A stretch of DNA of 24,758 bases from a virus (Duplodnaviria; Heunggongvirae; Uroviricota; Caudoviricetes): IMG/VR virus record IMGVR_UViG_2698536536_000002; one strand, written 5' to 3'. Position numbers and translations under genes: made by a program. Positions 4,752 to 21,731 of this stretch are shown piece after piece (the stretch's first letter is position 1; every line of letters begins with the position of its first letter). The notes under the pieces are model-generated. The model was not told the origin of the DNA. It ran no database searches and was given only the letters and a program-made list of their open reading frames with translations.

Positions 4752-4809
4752 AAAAACGGCGGCAGAGCAGTCACGGAGTAAAACTGATACCGCCAAACGT
4801 CACCAGAAA
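4752..4809 (-). ncRNA. dicF: DicF-like small regulatory RNA (ftsZ-targeting antisense sRNA)
   Basis: Minus-strand sequence UUUCUGGUGACGUUUGGCGGUAUCAGUUUUACUCCGUGACUGCUCUGCCGCCGUUUUU (reverse complement of 4752-4809) matches the remembered DicF sequence. It ends in GC-rich sequence plus a U-run and sits between the YdfB/C-like ORF and dicB, as in the Qin dicB operon. Exact ends are approximate. Confidence 0.55.
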
Positions 4810-11897: not shown

Positions 11898-12106
11898 TTA
11901 TATTGGCGAGGTGACGTGAGTTAAGTAGAATTGCTGCGGGTGCTTGAGGCTATCTGCCTCAGGCATGAACACCAAAGGCAGATAGAGAAAAGCCCCAGTT
12001 AACATTACGCGTCCTGCAAGACGCTTAACATTAATCTGAGGCCAATTTCATGCTAGACACATGTAGGTTAGCCTCTTACGTGCCGAAAGGCAAGGAGAAG
12101 CAGGCT

Positions 12107-12262
12107 ATGAAGCAGCAAAAGGCGATGTTAATCGCCCTGATCGTCATCTGTTTAACCGTCATAGTGACGGCACTGGTAACGAGGAAAGACCTCTGCGAGG
12201 TACGAATCCGAACCGGCCAGACGGAGGTCGCTGTCTTCACAGCTTACGAACCTGAGGAGTAA
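12107..12262 (+). CDS. hokD: Hok/Gef-family type I toxin (HokD/RelF-like)
   Basis: 51-aa product MKQQKAMLIALIVICLTVIVTALVTRKDLCEVRIRTGQTEVAVFTAYEPEE matches the remembered HokD/RelF sequence. AAGGAG RBS at 12092-12097. Flanked by a 10-bp-stem hairpin upstream (11950-11985) and a 9-bp hairpin (12270-12291) plus terminator downstream. Confidence 0.85.
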   Translation: MKQQKAMLIALIVICLTVIVTALVTRKDLCEVRIRTGQTEVAVFTAYEPEE

Positions 12263-15387: not shown

Positions 15388-15463
15388 ATTCTGCTCCCGG
15401 CCCTTTAGCTCAGTGGTGAGAGCGAGCGACTCATAATCGCCAGGTCGCTGGTTCAAATCCAGC
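15388..15463 (+). tRNA. tRNA with CAU anticodon (tRNA-Ile2/ileZ-like, or Met)
   Basis: 76-nt cloverleaf drawn by hand: acceptor GGCCCTT/AAGGGCC, D-stem GCTC/GAGC, anticodon loop CTCATAA, T-stem GCTGG/CCAGC, T-loop TTCAAAT, 3' ACCA. Confidence 0.85.
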
Positions 15464-15564
15464 AAGGGCCACCATCACAAACCGCCATTAGCTTATCAGG
15501 AAGAGCAGACGACACGATAACAGGGTTGTTGGTGCGGGGGCGGGTCCCCGATGGCGGTCCATTA

Positions 15565-15641
15565 TCGGTATTCAGCGTTGTTAGCTCAGCCGGACAGAGC
15601 AATTGCCTTCTAAGCAATCGGTCACTGGTTCGAATCCAGTA
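15565..15641 (+). tRNA. tRNA-Arg (UCU anticodon; argN/argO/argU-like)
   Basis: 77-nt cloverleaf: acceptor GCGTTGT/ACAGCGC (one G-U), anticodon stem ATTGC/GCAAT with loop CTTCTAA, T-stem ACTGG/CCAGT, T-loop TTCGAAT, 3' GCCA. Confidence 0.85.
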
Positions 15642-15761
15642 CAGCGCGCCATATTCATTCTTCCAGATTCCTTCCGGCAGAGCCTTATACTGGAATATAC
15701 CTGGCTCAGGATATTGTTGAAAACATAATATGTTTGTCAAAAATAAAAGTTCTGTTAAGTA

Positions 15762-16115: not shown

Positions 16116-16645
16116 ATACATATCTGGATTATCACCTGTTACGGTAAAAAGTGATTGCTTACTGTTTTTGTGAATGGCATTGCAGCAGCCGGATAATGTC
16201 AGTGCTGGCTGACGGTGTGCTGGTGGCGGGTGTGGTGGTTGCTTTCCCGTTGCTGAAAAAGAAAACGCCAGACTGTTAGCCGGGTATCAGTTAGCGGGAG
16301 AAATTTTTAAATACTTCACAATTCAGGCGGTTGACTGTTCTCTGGTTTGCGGGGAGTTTGTTAAAAGAAACTGGCATGGTGAATCCCCCTGTGCGGAGGG
16401 GCAATCAGCGAGTAGGTATATGGGATAATCGCGGATTCAGGTGCTGGTACTGAATTCACCGGGAGGCACCCGGCACCATGCACTTAAATAGATTCTCTCC
16501 ACATTATGGATATTCTTTCAGAATATCCCACGCAGACTTTGTGTAAATGTTAACAAATGTGCGTTTTATTTGATCTGATTCGCTGTTTGAGCGTCCAAAA
16601 CAACGGTATATATAATCCTTTACTATATGACATATGTGAGAAAAA

Positions 16646-17074
16646 ATGGGTTTTCGTAGCGCATCAATTCTTACGTTGATTATTAGTGGGATTATTATCG
16701 GGTGCACTGATGCTGTATCGACAAATTATCATGACCGTACATCATCTTACTCCGATAAAACAATAGAGACACAGTATGTGAGTTCATCTGAACGTACTTC
16801 TGATGTTAGTGAGGATATCCGTCTGTATGCCCATCAAATCAAGAGCGCCATCGAAAAACAGTTCGGGGATGCGAGTAAGTATTCAGGAAAAGAGTGTACA
16901 CTGAGAATGCATATGGCCCCGAATGGCCTTCTACTGGAGGTTAAAAGAGAAAGTGGAGACCTCGATTTATGTCGTGAAGCGATGAATGCGATAAAGAATG
17001 CTGATATACCTGCCCCCCCTTCGCCGGAAGTATATAAAGTATTTCAAAATGGGGTGCTGGATTTTAAACCCTGA
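16646..17074 (+). CDS. Lipoprotein with TolA C-terminal (domain III)-like domain
   Basis: Signal peptide plus lipobox (…LIISGIIIGC). C-terminal …YAHQIKSAIEKQFGDASKYSGKECTLRMHMAPNGLLLEVKRESGDLDLCREAMNAIKNADIPAPPSPEVYKVFQNGVLDFKP closely parallels the remembered C-terminus of E. coli TolA, including both cysteines and the terminal LDFKP. Candidate promoter TTGAGC-18-TATAAT at 16587-16616. Confidence 0.75.
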   Translation: MGFRSASILTLIISGIIIGCTDAVSTNYHDRTSSYSDKTIETQYVSSSERTSDVSEDIRLYAHQIKSAIEKQFGDASKYSGKECTLRMHMAPNGLLLEVKRESGDLDLCREAMNAIKNADIPAPPSPEVYKVFQNGVLDFKP

Positions 17075-17224
17075 TATTTATTGTTTTGTAATAAACGGTT
17101 TCGGCTTAGGTTTGTTCTGACACAACTACGGCACTGAGCTAAATTTAGCGGATAGTCAGCTCTGAGCCAGTGGCGGACGTAACAACTACTATTGCTGAGA
17201 TTTTAATGGATTGAGGAGCAAGAA

Positions 17225-17620
17225 GTGGGATTAAAGAAAATCGTTATGTTGACTTTTTGGGGCGGTTTTGTTGCGGGATGCACACCTTTACACCCTTCAG
17301 ATTGCCACAAAACTACTGCTACAGGTAGTTGCAGTTCAGGACGCTGGGATGATCAGGATGAATGGGGGGCGCAAGCGCGGGGAATCAGAGCTGCAATTAA
17401 TGCCAAACTTGATGAGCCGCATAACTGGAAAGGGAAAATATGCAGGTTGCATATGGAATTCTCTCAGGATGGCACGGCGTTAAAAATATCTACCAGTAAC
17501 GGTGATAAAGCCTATTGCGAAGCGATAAAGTCCGCAGCTCATAAAGCCAAATTTCCGGCCTTCAACAATCCGGAAGTCTACAGAGATTTTCAGAAATCTG
17601 GCTTTGACATGCGAGGTTAG
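17225..17620 (+). CDS. Lipoprotein, diverged paralogue of the TolA domain III-like lipoprotein
   Basis: GTG start with GAGGAG RBS. Signal peptide plus lipobox (…FVAGC). C-terminal domain keeps the same Cys…Cys spacing and PEVY motif (…ICRLHMEFSQDGTALKISTSNGDKAYCEAIKSAAHKAKFPAFNNPEVYRDFQKSGFDMR). Confidence 0.65.
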   Translation: MGLKKIVMLTFWGGFVAGCTPLHPSDCHKTTATGSCSSGRWDDQDEWGAQARGIRAAINAKLDEPHNWKGKICRLHMEFSQDGTALKISTSNGDKAYCEAIKSAAHKAKFPAFNNPEVYRDFQKSGFDMRG

Positions 17621-17871
17621 CTCTTCAATTACTATATCTCATTCATAGCAAACTGACAGATTTGATGATGTTCTATATACGAAACCTGTGATGTCAAGTC
17701 TGAGCTAATACAAATAAACATAATATCAGAGAAATACATTTTATTAGCTCGCTACGGCGAGCTTTTTATATTGCATCGTCTCCAGCATATATATCAATTA
17801 AGGCTCTGATTGATGTGTCTGGAAGCCTACACATAATAACTATGCCATCCGTTCCGTGCGGAGGTGAGGCT

Positions 17872-18087
17872 ATGAAATCCATGGACAAAATTTCAACAGG
17901 CATTGCCTACGGCACCTCCGCAGGCAGTGCTGGCTACTGGTTTTTACAGCTGCTCGATAAAGTCACGCCCTCACAGTGGGCAGCAATAGGTGTGCTGGGT
18001 AGCCTGGTATTTGGCCTGCTGACGTACCTGACAAACCTTTATTTCAAGATTAAAGAAGACAAGCGTAAGGCTGCACGGGGAGAGTAA
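17872..18087 (+). CDS. Class II holin (phage 21 S-type pinholin-like) with dual-start motif
   Basis: 71 aa, [71 protein letters not shown], with two TM segments and a charged C-terminus. Met-Lys-Ser-Met dual start and GGAGGTGAGG RBS. Closely resembles my recollection of S21. Confidence 0.85.
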
Positions 18088-18091
18088 TTCA

Positions 18092-18436
18092 ATGACTCAA
18101 AAATATGAACTGATTGTGAAAGGGATCCGCAATTTTGAGAATAAAGTTACGGTAACTTTAGCGTTACGGGACAAAGAACGCTTTGACGGTGAAATTTTTG
18201 ACCTGGACATCTCGCTGGACCGTGTTGAAGGTGCCGCGCTGGAGTTTTATGAGGCAGCAGCCAGAAGGAGCATCAGACAGGTCTTCCTGGATGTTGCTGC
18301 CGGGTTATGTGAAGGGGATGAGCTGTCGCCGGAAAAGCGCCCCATAATTTTAGAGGCGCAGAATGTGTGGATAACCTACAAAGGAAAGCTACCGGGAAGA
18401 ATTACTGGTTCTCTGAAGACTCCGCCGAAATGGTAA
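18092..18436 (+). CDS. ydfR: YdfR-like protein (DUF1327-type) between holin and endolysin
   Basis: 114 aa beginning MTQKYELIVKGIRNFENKVTVTLALRDKERFDGEIFDLD…. Same position as ydfR between essQ and rrrQ in Qin. Confidence 0.65.
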   Translation: MTQKYELIVKGIRNFENKVTVTLALRDKERFDGEIFDLDISLDRVEGAALEFYEAAARRSIRQVFLDVAAGLCEGDELSPEKRPIILEAQNVWITYKGKLPGRITGSLKTPPKW

Positions 18437-18674
18437 TTTCACCAGCATATTTTTCTTCCAGTAATACCGCCAGCCACTTGAAAGAATTTTGTTGTTGCTG
18501 GGACCATTTGGGGTTGAGTGATTCAAGCTGGAGCGATGCCAGTGTTGGTTGCATTTGTTCCTTGGGAATTGAGAATGCCAGATATGAAAATGCGACAGTA
18601 AGGGCATTTACATCATCCCGAAGCTTGGAAATGCAGTCGAGCAACTCCTGTAGAGAAATGGTGCTATTGTCCAT
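18402..18674 (-). CDS. Hypothetical 90-aa protein encoded antisense within the lysis cassette
   Basis: ATG at 18674 with GAGAGG RBS about 8 nt upstream. Product looks protein-like (MDNSTISLQELLDCISKLRDDVNALTVAFSYLAFSIPKEQMQPTLASLQLESLNPKW…). The plus-strand ORF over the same DNA is Ser/Cys-rich and looks spurious. Confidence 0.35.
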   Translation of the reverse strand: MDNSTISLQELLDCISKLRDDVNALTVAFSYLAFSIPKEQMQPTLASLQLESLNPKWSQQQQNSFKWLAVLLEEKYAGEITISAESSENQ

Positions 18675-18779
18675 AAACAATCCTCTCTATTGTATTTAAC
18701 TATTCCTTGCCTGATTCAACAGGCCGGGACAGATAAACATATCCAGGGTTCAGAAACCGATAAACCCTGATAAATATCC

Positions 18780-19313
18780 ATGAACGTAAAAATCAGATAC
18801 GGCCTGTCGGCTGCCGTTCTGGCACTGATTGCCGTCGGTGCGCCTGCGCCTGATATTCTCGACCAGTTTCTGAATGAAAAAGAAGGTAACCACACAACGG
18901 CATACCGCGATGGTTCCGGCATCTGGACCATCTGTCGGGGTGCCACGGTGGTGGATGGAAAACCCGTTTTTCCCGGTATGAAACTGTCGAAGGAAAAATG
19001 CGACCAGGTTAACGCCATTGAACGGGATAAGGCGCTGGCATGGGTGGAGCGCAATATTAAAGTGCCACTGACCGAACCACAGAAAGCGGGTATAGCGTCA
19101 TTTTGTCCCTATAACATTGGCCCAGGTAAGTGTTTTCCGTCGACATTTTATAAGCGGCTGAATGCTGGTGATCGAAAAGGCGCCTGCGAGGCGATTCGCT
19201 GGTGGATTAAGGATGGTGGCAGAGACTGCCGTATTCGTTCCAATAGCTGCTTCGGGCAAGTTTCGCGTCGGGACCAAGAAAGTGTGCTGGCGTGCTGGGG
19301 GATAGACCAGTGA
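18780..19313 (+). CDS. SAR endolysin (T4-lysozyme-like muramidase, GH24)
   Basis: 177 aa. N-terminal weakly hydrophobic Gly/Ala-rich signal-anchor-release segment ([16 protein letters not shown]). Catalytic E…D…T context (…[22 protein letters not shown]…). Follows a pinholin, as in phage 21. Confidence 0.85.
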
Positions 19314-19318
19314 ATAAC

Positions 19319-19831
19319 ATGTTTGCTAATGCTTGGTTGAAAGTTGCCACGGTTTCGGCTCTCCTCATTGCCTCATTTGTTGCAGGGAGTGTGTGGACGG
19401 AACGAGCATGGGAAAAGAAATGGGCGGATCGTAATAGTGAAGAATCCTCTCAGGCTGTGAACGCTCAGATAGCTGCTCGTATGATTGAACAAGGGCGAGT
19501 GATCGCTCGTGATGAGGCTGTTAAAAATGCACAAGAACAGGCTGCAAAAGCGGCTGCGAATGTTGCTGGCCTGTCTGCCACTGTTAACCAGCTGCGCACC
19601 GAAGCAACAAAACTTACCGTCCGCTTGGACGCTGCAAAGCACACCTCAGGTCTTGCCGTTGCCGTCGGAAGCAAAACAACCGCCACCAACGCCGCGATGC
19701 TTGCCGACATGCTCGGAAGTATTGCAGAAGAAGCTAGATACTATGCTGGGCGAGCTGATGAAAGTTACTTGGCTGGAATGACATGTGAACACATTTACGG
19801 CTCAGTGAGGGACTCAAGTAGTGTTAAATAG
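19319..19831 (+). CDS. Inner-membrane spanin Rz-like (i-spanin)
   Basis: N-terminal TM segment ([21 protein letters not shown]) followed by an Ala/Gln-rich coiled-coil periplasmic domain. Starts 6 nt after the endolysin stop. Contains an embedded +1-frame lipoprotein ORF. Confidence 0.65.
19560..19781 (+). CDS. Outer-membrane spanin Rz1-like (o-spanin) nested in Rz
   Basis: Embedded +1-frame ORF with lipoprotein signal and lipobox ([12 protein letters not shown]) and a Pro-rich mature region (…[15 protein letters not shown]…), the classic Rz1 architecture. Confidence 0.65.
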
Positions 19832-20019
19832 CTGGTATGATGATGTTGAGAAGGCGGCACAGCAGGAGCTGTAATCGACGAGTGCTAATCTAGCACAATT
19901 GAGTTCACAAATTGTCTACTTTTGCTATATTGCAACCGATGCCAACAGCCTTTTTTGAGCAAAAATCATAAATGTTATCGTGTTGGCAGTTTTTTTCTTT
20001 GACGACACGGAATGATTTT

Positions 20020-20442
20020 ATGTCAGAAGTAGCTGTTGAACTTGAAGAGGATTCTTGGCCTGATTTTTTCCCGGTTGGAGTACCGCCGAAATCAGCCGTC
20101 CCTGCTGAGGGCGAGTTTTTCCGTTTGGTAAGGTCTAATCCACCAACCCCTGCATGTTTCCTCTCTACACATGAAGAGTATCCGCAGCGGCACAAAAAGT
20201 ATCGTGGGGAAGCACTTCAGTGTGTCTATGGAACATCATTCTTTTCAGAATCGCGCGGGGCTACGGATGCAAAAGCTAAATTTCCTGCAGCTCTTGGTCA
20301 TCGACTCGTTGCTAGTGGTCAGATCACCCCCGTTTTCGGAGTAATGAAAAAAACATTTGCCGATCCAGCGCACTACACAATTTGGCTTAAGCGTAATTGT
20401 GCTATTCATGAACATTTTCACTGTATAGGAGAAGGCGTATGA
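20020..20442 (+). CDS. Hypothetical 140-aa protein (first gene of unknown two-gene cargo operon)
   Basis: ATG at 20020. Stop overlaps the start of the next gene (ATGA at 20439-20442). No recognised domain. C-terminal HEHFHC cluster could bind metal (speculative). Confidence 0.5.
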   Translation: MSEVAVELEEDSWPDFFPVGVPPKSAVPAEGEFFRLVRSNPPTPACFLSTHEEYPQRHKKYRGEALQCVYGTSFFSESRGATDAKAKFPAALGHRLVASGQITPVFGVMKKTFADPAHYTIWLKRNCAIHEHFHCIGEGV

Positions 20443-21731
20443 GTAACGTTTTTCTACCTAATACAATGATGGGCACTCTATGTTACAAAAGAGTTTATGA
20501 GTTCTTCGAAGAGCCTCGCTTCTTTTCAGTTGAAAATGAAGTTAGTACACTTTTTATCGTTTACTGGATTGGTGAGGATGATGAATGTGATAGTTGGTTT
20601 ATCATACCAATTTCTCCAGGGCGATTAGAGTTGATTGAAAGAAAAAGAATATGTATCCGTGATGCTTTGATTAATCAGGAGCAAAACTTTTTCTATGAAG
20701 CCCATATACCATACGATCGTACAGGCAAAGTGACTTGGCTGAGTAAAAACTTGGTTGATATATTTGAAATACCTTTGCCTGTTTCTGAACTATATATAAG
20801 TTCGGTAGTTCCAGTAATGCCAAATGGTAAACTGGGCGAGGCTATTACTTACTCAACTCATGAGATCCATTTAGAAAAAAGCTCAAAGAAAAGTGCAAAA
20901 AATTTGGTTTTAAGTCATGTGTCAAACGTATGCGACAGATTCAGCGATCTTTATGACAGAATGCTGGAGATGGCAAAGTGCAAAGATAAATTACGTCCTG
21001 TCGATGCGCGGCCTGGTTCCTTTATCATTTCTTTTAAAGCTGAGAAATTACATTCCTTTGAAGACACTTTTAAAGAATTAAGCAGGCTGATAGAACTTAG
21101 AGCTGATATTATTCCTTTTGTTTTCGAAAAGGGTATTGATGTTCCAGCTTTGACAGATCTCTTACAATCCATAGTTGAAACCGGAACGAATATGGAACTC
21201 AAAAGCAACCAGACAGGTGAATTAGCTTTTGTTATTACAAAAGCTGGTGCTGAGTTCTATTTAAAAAAATTATCACGTCTTTCTACCTCATTGGTTGGAG
21301 GGCATCAAATACCTCAAGCAGATGTCCTCGAGACAGTTTATAAATTAGTGGAAATTGTTTGGAGTGGCGAACCACTTACTCCTATTAATACTGGTTTGCA
21401 AGATAGACATATCTACTATTATAAGCATGCAGCTAAAGTTTTGGGATTACTTGATAGCTTTGGTAATGTCACAACGTCTGGTCAACAACTCGTACAAAGT
21501 GATGAGATGACTAGACATAAAATTGCAGCGAGAAAATTTGAAGTGAGTCATGTGGGATGGGCTTGGATAAATTGGGCCAGTGTTGAACATTTATCCCAAA
21601 TTGATCCTGACAGCGCTTTAGACTTTCTATTGGAGCAATGCCACTCTTTAAGTCGTGATACTATTGAACGACGTGCTACAACTATTAAACACTGGTGCCG
21701 TGAATTGAAAAATTATTATACACCTCTGTAA
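20439..21731 (+). CDS. Hypothetical 430-aa protein (second gene of unknown two-gene cargo operon)
   Basis: Long AT-rich ORF translationally coupled to the upstream gene and followed by an intrinsic terminator. No recognisable catalytic motif by eye. Confidence 0.7.
   Translation: MSNVFLPNTMMGTLCYKRVYEFFEEPRFFSVENEVSTLFIVYWIGEDDECDSWFIIPISPGRLELIERKRICIRDALINQEQNFFYEAHIPYDRTGKVTWLSKNLVDIFEIPLPVSELYISSVVPVMPNGKLGEAITYSTHEIHLEKSSKKSAKNLVLSHVSNVCDRFSDLYDRMLEMAKCKDKLRPVDARPGSFIISFKAEKLHSFEDTFKELSRLIELRADIIPFVFEKGIDVPALTDLLQSIVETGTNMELKSNQTGELAFVITKAGAEFYLKKLSRLSTSLVGGHQIPQADVLETVYKLVEIVWSGEPLTPINTGLQDRHIYYYKHAAKVLGLLDSFGNVTTSGQQLVQSDEMTRHKIAARKFEVSHVGWAWINWASVEHLSQIDPDSALDFLLEQCHSLSRDTIERRATTIKHWCRELKNYYTPL

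Follow-up and report, generated by a model that had tools for sequence, protein, structure and literature searches.

The window analysed here is a 24,758-nucleotide (nt) stretch of DNA, IMG/VR virus record IMGVR_UViG_2698536536_000002 (Caudoviricetes), which is a Qin/lambda-like prophage of Escherichia coli. Its lysis cassette contains a short open reading frame (ORF) of 90 amino acids on the minus strand, antisense to the late genes and lying between ydfR and the gene for the endolysin. The genes and features of the cassette are as follows.

17872-18087, plus strand: holin of the phage 21-type class II (pinholin family); PF04971, E 9e-36
18092-18436, plus strand: ydfR (DUF1327), the late-strand gene convergent with the ORF; DUF1327 match, E 8e-43
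18402-18674, minus strand: the 90-residue ORF (PHROG 2411 / WP_000370545.1); ATG at 18674-18672, TAA at 18404-18402
18402-18436, both strands: convergent overlap of the ORF and ydfR, 35 base pairs (bp); ORF residues 80-90 against the YdfR C-terminus ITGSLKTPPKW
18682-18687, minus strand: Shine-Dalgarno sequence of the ORF, GAGAGG, 7 nt to the ATG; the GAGG core is present in all haplotypes
18780-19313, plus strand: phage lysozyme with a hydrophobic N-terminal segment (signal-anchor-release, SAR-type endolysin); PF00959, E 1e-24
19319-19831, plus strand: Rz-like lysis protein (DUF2514); PF10721, E 5e-45

The gap between ydfR and the endolysin gene (18437-18779, 343 bp) contains no plus-strand lysis gene and is occupied by the antisense ORF. 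The reading frame, its GAGAGG site, the 35-bp overlap with ydfR and the gap had been described in an earlier note made from the letters alone, and the coordinates given there are all correct. The overlap with the tail of the ORF comprises the last 11 sense codons of ydfR and its stop codon. The open-reading-frame listing also includes a TTG start two codons 5′ of the ATG, which would give an alternative form of 92 amino acids. The 501 bases searched (18300-18800) are identical in the VE-V10-F prophage, which adjoins rspAB.

The antisense ORF is very nearly certain to be a genuine protein-coding gene. The identical ORF is annotated by PGAP/RefSeq as the hypothetical protein WP_000370545.1, in a genome that does not differ from the window across those 501 bases. 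Its product matches phrog_2411 with an E-value of 2.2e-59, residues 1-90 aligning with profile positions 1-90 of 90, and this PHROG is annotated as of unknown function. The gene is already catalogued, as a member of PHROG 2411 and as a RefSeq hypothetical protein. Pfam, NCBIfam and PADLOC returned no match for the product, and nothing was found in the literature about the ORF, ‘ybl58’ or the function of DUF1327.

Conservation of the frame in related prophages, a check named in the earlier note, was evident. At least 80% of the region 18402-18780 was found in 1053 of 5426 complete E. coli genomes (~19%), at 75-100% nucleotide identity; any part of the region was matched in 2554 genomes, and the ORF is present in 1053 of these. 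It is also carried by the phages Chlobot, vB_EcoS-783R2 and phiSTEC1575-Stx2k, whose genomes have been deposited. Within a sample of approximately 290 loci gathered from IMG/VR, metagenomes and genomes, and a set of 61 unique haplotypes each spanning 18300-18790, the minus-strand frame is intact in 55 of the 61. The others comprise four singleton nonsense mutations and two haplotypes with a stop one codon early. Both the ATG and the GAGG core are unchanged across every haplotype. A plus-strand ORF covering this DNA (18367-18699) is interrupted in 30 of the 61, including all of the divergent clades.

In the non-overlapping part of the ORF, variable sites are distributed 25/23/53 over codon positions 1, 2 and 3, with a ratio of nonsynonymous to synonymous substitution rates (dN/dS) of 0.28. 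By region, this ratio is 0.19 for codons 1-47, 0.43 for codons 48-79 and 0.51 for the adjoining 3′ part of ydfR. The possibility that the plus-strand ORF continues a long YdfR at its C-terminus after a frameshift was also considered; this was rejected, as that frame has no PHROG match and is broken in half of the haplotypes.

For the wider family, an exhaustive hidden Markov model (HMM) search of 1.84 billion representative proteins returned 18 hits only, and a profile search of 5.8 billion proteins gave 124 family matches. Nearly all copies in a metagenome scan were of the E. coli type, and a scan for the motif GGRATGGCTGATTAAC across IMG/VR produced 72 matches, 71 of them due to chance. Outside Escherichia/Shigella, Citrobacter and Yersinia have copies at 28-63% identity, and chromosomal family proteins of 89-97 amino acids occur in Serratia (many species), Chania, Gibbsiella, Chimaeribacter, Sodalis and Acerihabitans. 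The prophage relatives of Citrobacter and Yersinia and the chromosomal ones of Serratia and Sodalis span 28-60% identity. All of the distant members tested match phrog_2411 (E 1e-9 to 1e-19). The family has a conserved core, ELL..I....L.V..AFSYLAF......L..L..E..N.....Q..F..LA, followed by a variable C-terminal tail.

Within E. coli the ORF is nearly always found inside the holin-ydfR-endolysin block (17860-19310) of the ~290 loci. Distant homologues occupy other sites. Two of them (P0124 and P0127) lie antisense to late genes between the tail genes M and L, where the insertion consists of the homologue together with a convergent partner, and another (P0123) is antisense and located 5′ of two small genes and the terminase genes. 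The chromosomal homologues P0131 and P0138 of Serratia are situated between dinI and bssS without lysis genes nearby, that of Sodalis (P0128) is a standalone chromosomal gene, and one further chromosomal homologue adjoins an autotransporter gene. The Serratia orthologues at L220:5001-5279 and L380:4001-4282 (92-93 amino acids) share the fixed dinI-bssS site, downstream of rne and pyrC. The chromosome of E. coli LR-31 has a 75%-identical copy with an intact 90-residue frame (L006:2446-2718, minus strand). This copy is flanked by IS630, IS5 and transposase remnants and adjoins iha, and no ydfR, holin or lysozyme gene is nearby.

A second recurrent feature is the convergent partner. In the window, in Citrobacter, in Yersinia and in three metagenomic phage contexts, a late-strand ORF overlaps the 3′ end of the homologue by 7-44 nt. 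The partners are 114, 238, 71, 62, 71-85 and 60-81 amino acids long, and all end in a similar motif, ..KG.L....(I/L)(T/F/D)G(S/D)(L/V)..P.., their N-terminal parts being otherwise unrelated. Its short form is K(I/L)TG(S/D)L..P. The stretch concerned is 18392-18436 (plus strand) in the window, and the convergent ORFs of the other contexts are L223:4239-4955, L224:4206-4421, L210:5248-5436, L212:5261-5476 and L217:687-869. As the motif of the Citrobacter partner lies outside the overlap, it is a property of that partner rather than a shadow cast by the ORF. The convergent partners have no common Pfam or PHROG family, and homology to DUF1327 was not detected among them. It has been reported that YdfR of strain K-12 binds RNase E's catalytic domain and co-purifies with RNA (PMC13232886).

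On these sequence comparisons a functional link between the ORF and its partner is possible. It would not be an obligatory one, because there are chromosomal homologues without a partner and the cargo of this position is exchanged in strain LF82. The stronger form of such a link, in which the ORF and the convergent late gene constitute a two-gene module, is unlikely. The ORF product would then be a lysogeny-phase antagonist or regulator of its partner, or control would be mutual, exerted through the overlap of the two 3′ ends. A module of this kind would fit the convergent small ORF with the shared C-terminal motif in five further contexts (L223, L224, L210, L212 and L217) and the M-L insertion that both genes form jointly; the binding of RNase E by K-12 YdfR makes a host-directed partner plausible. 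However, the partners have only the short C-terminal motif in common, with no Pfam or PHROG family to link them, and the chromosomal homologues do without such a partner. The YdfR of LF82 is paired with an unrelated antisense ORF, and toxicity of ydfR overexpression was not reported (PMC13232886).

The product of the ORF is a protein of 10.2 kDa with an isoelectric point of 4.3, a net charge of -6.5 and an acidic N-terminus, MDNSTISLQELLD. It contains no hydrophobic span (maximum Kyte-Doolittle score over 19 residues 0.88) and no signal peptide. A plausibly helical protein had been anticipated, and the fold predicted by AlphaFold2 is a bundle of three helices (residues 8-35, 38-52 and 59-77) with a mean predicted local distance difference test score (pLDDT) of 78 from 29 sequences and 81 from 52. 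Residues 80-90 have a pLDDT below 50 and are predicted to form a disordered tail, which is variable across the family and encoded in the ydfR overlap. The overlap therefore costs the protein nothing structured.

No DNA-binding domain was found in Pfam or NCBIfam and no fold match to DNA-binding proteins rose above noise. DNA-binding phage regulators, such as those of the Cro, CI and HTH kinds, are usually basic. The suggestion that this acidic protein is a regulator is not borne out by any DNA-binding family or fold. A sequence profile search of the PDB returned nothing, the PADLOC defence models matched neither the ORF nor YdfR, and Pfam gave no toxin or antitoxin match for the ORF. The product has no lipobox and no domain of the Bor-Iss family, and no Pfam match of any kind.

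By moron is meant an accessory unit within a phage operon that is transcribed independently (PMC3594210). Comparison with cassettes which do not carry the ORF defines the following segment.

18428-18720 (approximate), both strands: presence/absence segment of ~290 bp, compared with ORF-less cassettes

The G+C content of the segment is 0.42-0.44, a modest difference from the 0.48-0.53 of the holin, ydfR, lysozyme and Rz genes. It is missing from the otherwise homologous cassettes L007, L379 and L378, in which leader remnants are kept. Two ORF-less types with different junctions can be distinguished, one in an O157:H7 prophage (L378) and the other in L379 and L007; in L007 the Shine-Dalgarno-like AATTAAGG remains, matching the Citrobacter-type leader. 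As the junctions differ and both types keep pieces of the leader, they look like independent deletions from an ORF-bearing ancestor. ORF-less cassettes of the same type are widespread among E. coli genomes, which suggests that the ORF is dispensable for lytic growth.

The same slot can hold a different gene. In the LF82 prophage Perceval it is occupied by an antisense ORF of 79 amino acids (L381:1207-1446, minus strand; phrog_21218, WP_001168526.1), and similarity between the window and this allele resumes exactly at the hexamer TATGTT, the candidate -10 element described below. The PHROG 2411 and phrog_21218 ORFs gave no BLASTP match, and an E-value of 0.11 with a probability below 1% in hhalign. 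The LF82-type allele was found in 102 of the 5426 E. coli genomes, against 1053 for the ORF of the window. In phiSTEC1575-Stx2k, sequenced as a complete phage genome, the holin gene, ydfR and the antisense ORF are kept with a different downstream endolysin module. It is likely, from these comparisons, that the ORF is an optional and separately acquired moron gene and not a part of the lysis machinery. The earlier suggestion of a moron thus gains from the presence/absence segment, the alternative antisense ORF of LF82, and the relatives found antisense at other late sites and in chromosomes.

The bor gene of phage lambda, whose relative is iss, is a moron beside the lysis genes whose transcription runs counter to that of the late operon and which is expressed in lysogens. 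In related cassettes iss/bor is found antisense just after Rz. Like bor and iss, the ORF is a small, optional frame in a lambdoid lysis cassette, is directed against late transcription and presumably has a promoter of its own. Bor and Iss are lipoproteins of the outer membrane that carry a signal peptide and a lipobox, whereas the ORF product is predicted to be cytoplasmic, acidic and all-helical, and has no sequence or family relation to them. The ORF also differs from bor in its position within the cassette, where it separates ydfR from the endolysin gene and overlaps a late gene, and in that its expression in lysogens is presumed from sequence. The phrog_21218 ORF of LF82 shares the slot, the orientation, a similar size and the same upstream -10 with the ORF of the window, and it has the canonical structured leader. 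It differs from the ORF of the window in being rarer and in showing no detectable sequence relation.

An anti-lysis factor had also been suggested for this position. In its broader form, this explanation would have the ORF act on lysis timing through the holin, YdfR or the endolysin, or have its antisense transcript damp leaky expression of the holin gene and ydfR in lysogens. The location of the ORF inside the holin-ydfR-endolysin block in ~290 E. coli loci, its continued linkage to holin and ydfR despite the swap of the endolysin module, and the absence of a terminator between it and the antisense strand of ydfR and the holin gene would all be consistent with such a role. It is nonetheless improbable. 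The protein is soluble and acidic, with no membrane segment and none of the membrane or periplasmic features of known antiholins, and its homologues are found away from lysis genes: among tail genes, beside terminase genes and in chromosomes. Moreover, many of the widespread cassettes of this type have lost the ORF, an O157:H7 genome providing one example.

The region upstream of the ORF contains three candidate expression signals.

18736-18741, minus strand: candidate -10 hexamer TATGTT; predicted start near 18729, leader of ~55 nt
18759-18764, minus strand: weak -35-like TTTATC (3/6), 17 nt from the -10
18709-18724, minus strand: small leader hairpin GCCUG-UUGAAU-CAGGC, at the position of the relatives’ ‘hairpin 1’

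A -10-like hexamer (TATGTT, TATTGT, TATTAT, TACTAT or TAAGTT, according to context) is positioned exactly 6 nt before a conserved TCAGCC(C) in six of seven independent contexts, the register in L210 being ambiguous. The relatives have the same leader order: the -10-like hexamer, 6 nt, TCAGCC(C), a first hairpin with the loop GGTRGGA, a second hairpin, the Shine-Dalgarno sequence and the ATG. The loop of the second hairpin, (A)TGGCTGA(TTAA), is complementary to the TCAGCC 5′ end, and RNAalifold proposes pairing of TCAGCC with the GGCTGA loop. Leaders are located at L210:4921-5003, L212:4927-5003, L217:383-458, L218:763-823, L223:3924-4003, L224:3910-3991, L373:218-299 and L381:1444-1530 (minus). 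This structured leader is common to distant PHROG 2411 genes and to the unrelated phrog_21218 gene of LF82. In hairpin 1, 96% of cells are paired and five of seven pairs have changes on both sides, with all measures above those of slid controls; taken from eight sequences only, the covariation is suggestive. Rfam gave no match at 18402-18800 or in the leaders of the relatives with E-values up to 1. The leader of the window has TCCCGG instead of TCAGCCCG; its hairpin, at 18709-18724, is small, and its second-loop sequence is degenerate.

A second candidate promoter, TACAAT at 18694-18689 with TTGAAT at 18719-18714, was rejected. It has a spacing of 19 nt, its start would fall inside the Shine-Dalgarno sequence, and the first T is a G in ~40 loci. 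A LexA box 5′ of the ORF, suggested by the dinI neighbourhood in Serratia, was sought in the window and none was found. An inverted repeat, CCAGGGTT..N11..AACCCTG, is located at 18743-18770, just 5′ of the endolysin start codon, for which no obvious Shine-Dalgarno sequence was seen. The repeat is contained in the putative promoter region of the ORF and might influence translation of the endolysin from the late mRNA.

The shared leader admits a wider interpretation, in which the slot between ydfR and the endolysin gene is a dedicated antisense ‘expression platform’ of lambdoid late operons, formed by the conserved promoter and the structured leader, for interchangeable cargo (PHROG 2411 or phrog_21218). 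The cargo would be a lysogeny-phase counterpart of the RNase E-binding YdfR and would link the state of the prophage to RNA decay in the host; the copy in the window would be a derived one with a shortened leader. This is a speculative proposal with a small chance of being correct.

The structured and covarying leader of the relatives, and the full complementarity of the region to the late mRNA, could also be accommodated if the minus transcript served mainly as an antisense RNA, or the DNA as a spacer or a structure in the late mRNA, with the reading frame incidental. This is very unlikely given the excess of variable third positions, dN/dS values of 0.19-0.28, the frame kept in 55 of 61 haplotypes and the conserved Shine-Dalgarno sequence and ATG, as well as conservation of the protein down to 28% identity in unrelated contexts and the lack of an Rfam match. 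A chance ORF or gene-caller artefact, an antisense shadow of the plus strand, would draw on the plus-strand ORF 18367-18699 and its equally low dN/dS through coincident wobble positions, and is scarcely credible when 30 of 61 haplotypes interrupt that ORF, which lacks a family match, and the exhaustive HMM search finds distant homologues of the minus-strand ORF.

The explanation given modest preference, with a little better than an even chance of holding in full, is that the ORF is an accessory moron gene placed backwards in the late lysis operon of a lambdoid prophage and working as follows. The ORF would be transcribed from its own weak sigma-70-type promoter (-10 at 18741-18736) with a leader of ~55 nt, independently of the Q-dependent late transcript, and would consequently be made in the lysogen. 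Its good ribosome-binding site would allow translation into a small, acidic, helical protein. After induction, late RNA polymerase moving on the plus strand toward the endolysin and Rz genes would collide with and override the ORF promoter, and the complementary RNAs together with the collision would shut the ORF off in lytic growth. Without a terminator, the ORF transcript probably runs antisense into ydfR and perhaps into the holin gene. The product would most likely bind another protein or an RNA-protein complex rather than DNA, and the lysogen or the phage would profit from this.

Anti-adaptors of the IraM type may serve, by analogy, as a model for a protein-binding moron product. IraM resembles the ORF product as a small soluble protein encoded antisense near a holin gene in the same prophage group. 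The analogy is a functional one, as there is no sequence or family match between them.

As regards the choice of strand, the plus frame with coincident wobble positions has an equally low dN/dS (0.25 versus 0.28). As the wobble positions of the two ORFs coincide, dN/dS alone cannot choose the strand; the coding strand is settled by the integrity of the reading frame and the distant protein homologues. Several points weigh against the preferred explanation. A consensus sigma-70 scan found no minus-strand promoter at 18675-18800, where the -35 is weak, and no intrinsic-terminator-like site was found on the minus strand downstream of 18402, so that a classical feature of morons is missing. The -10 region is also within the 5′ untranslated region of the endolysin gene, and its conservation inside E. 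coli is for this reason not specific evidence of a promoter. The better argument for a putative promoter of the ORF at TATGTT is that the boundary of the cargo swap falls at this -10. A covariance model of the full leader matches its training sequences only and not the window, and the leader of the window is therefore a shortened and diverged version. Lastly, the mode of action is a guess from charge and predicted fold. The homology and structure searches proposed in the earlier note succeeded in their first part, with PHROG 2411 and the distant homologues, and not in their second, since structure searches of the product ended without an informative match.

A per-gene RNA-seq table for LF82 has no entry for the interval from ydfR to the endolysin gene, a slot which in that strain holds the different antisense ORF (PMC9928086).

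Other features of the window are less closely connected with the ORF. The matches to Rfam are listed first.

4757-4808, minus strand: DicF small RNA (sRNA)
11938-12112, plus strand: sok antitoxin RNA, adjoining hokD
15399-15471 and 15575-15648, plus strand: two transfer RNA genes
16345-16535, plus strand: STnc100-like sRNA, downstream of the Q gene

Two genes with TolA/TonB C-terminal-domain-like products (16646-17074 and 17225-17620, plus strand) lie between the Q region and the holin gene and are followed by a strong terminator-like hairpin (17746-17763). These genes (16646-17620) are probably further morons. In Perceval of LF82, a ‘TonB fragment’ gene at a different position (after iss) is expressed in the lysogen 8-fold above the local background of the prophage (PMC9928086). 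Between the Rz-like gene and the terminase region, the window has a two-gene insert of low G+C content (19972-20442 and 20439-21731, plus strand) whose products weakly match the anti-phage defence models PD-T4-10 A and B (E 1e-5 and 3e-4). At the position of this insert (19972-21731), the nearly identical VE-V10-F prophage carries a different gene.

The ORF is a gene of approximately one in five complete E. coli genomes and is also present in phages sequenced as complete genomes, one of them Shiga-toxin-converting. Current understanding is not overturned, and a hypothetical-protein annotation of the gene already exists; among the loose ends, the leader absent from catalogues and the slot with interchangeable cargo are of most interest. 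If expressed in lysogens, the ORF would add a widespread lysogenic-conversion protein to the accessory repertoire of E. coli and would provide a compact case of a gene silenced by head-on late transcription. The locus also offers a tractable model for the gain, exchange and loss of morons inside essential phage operons.

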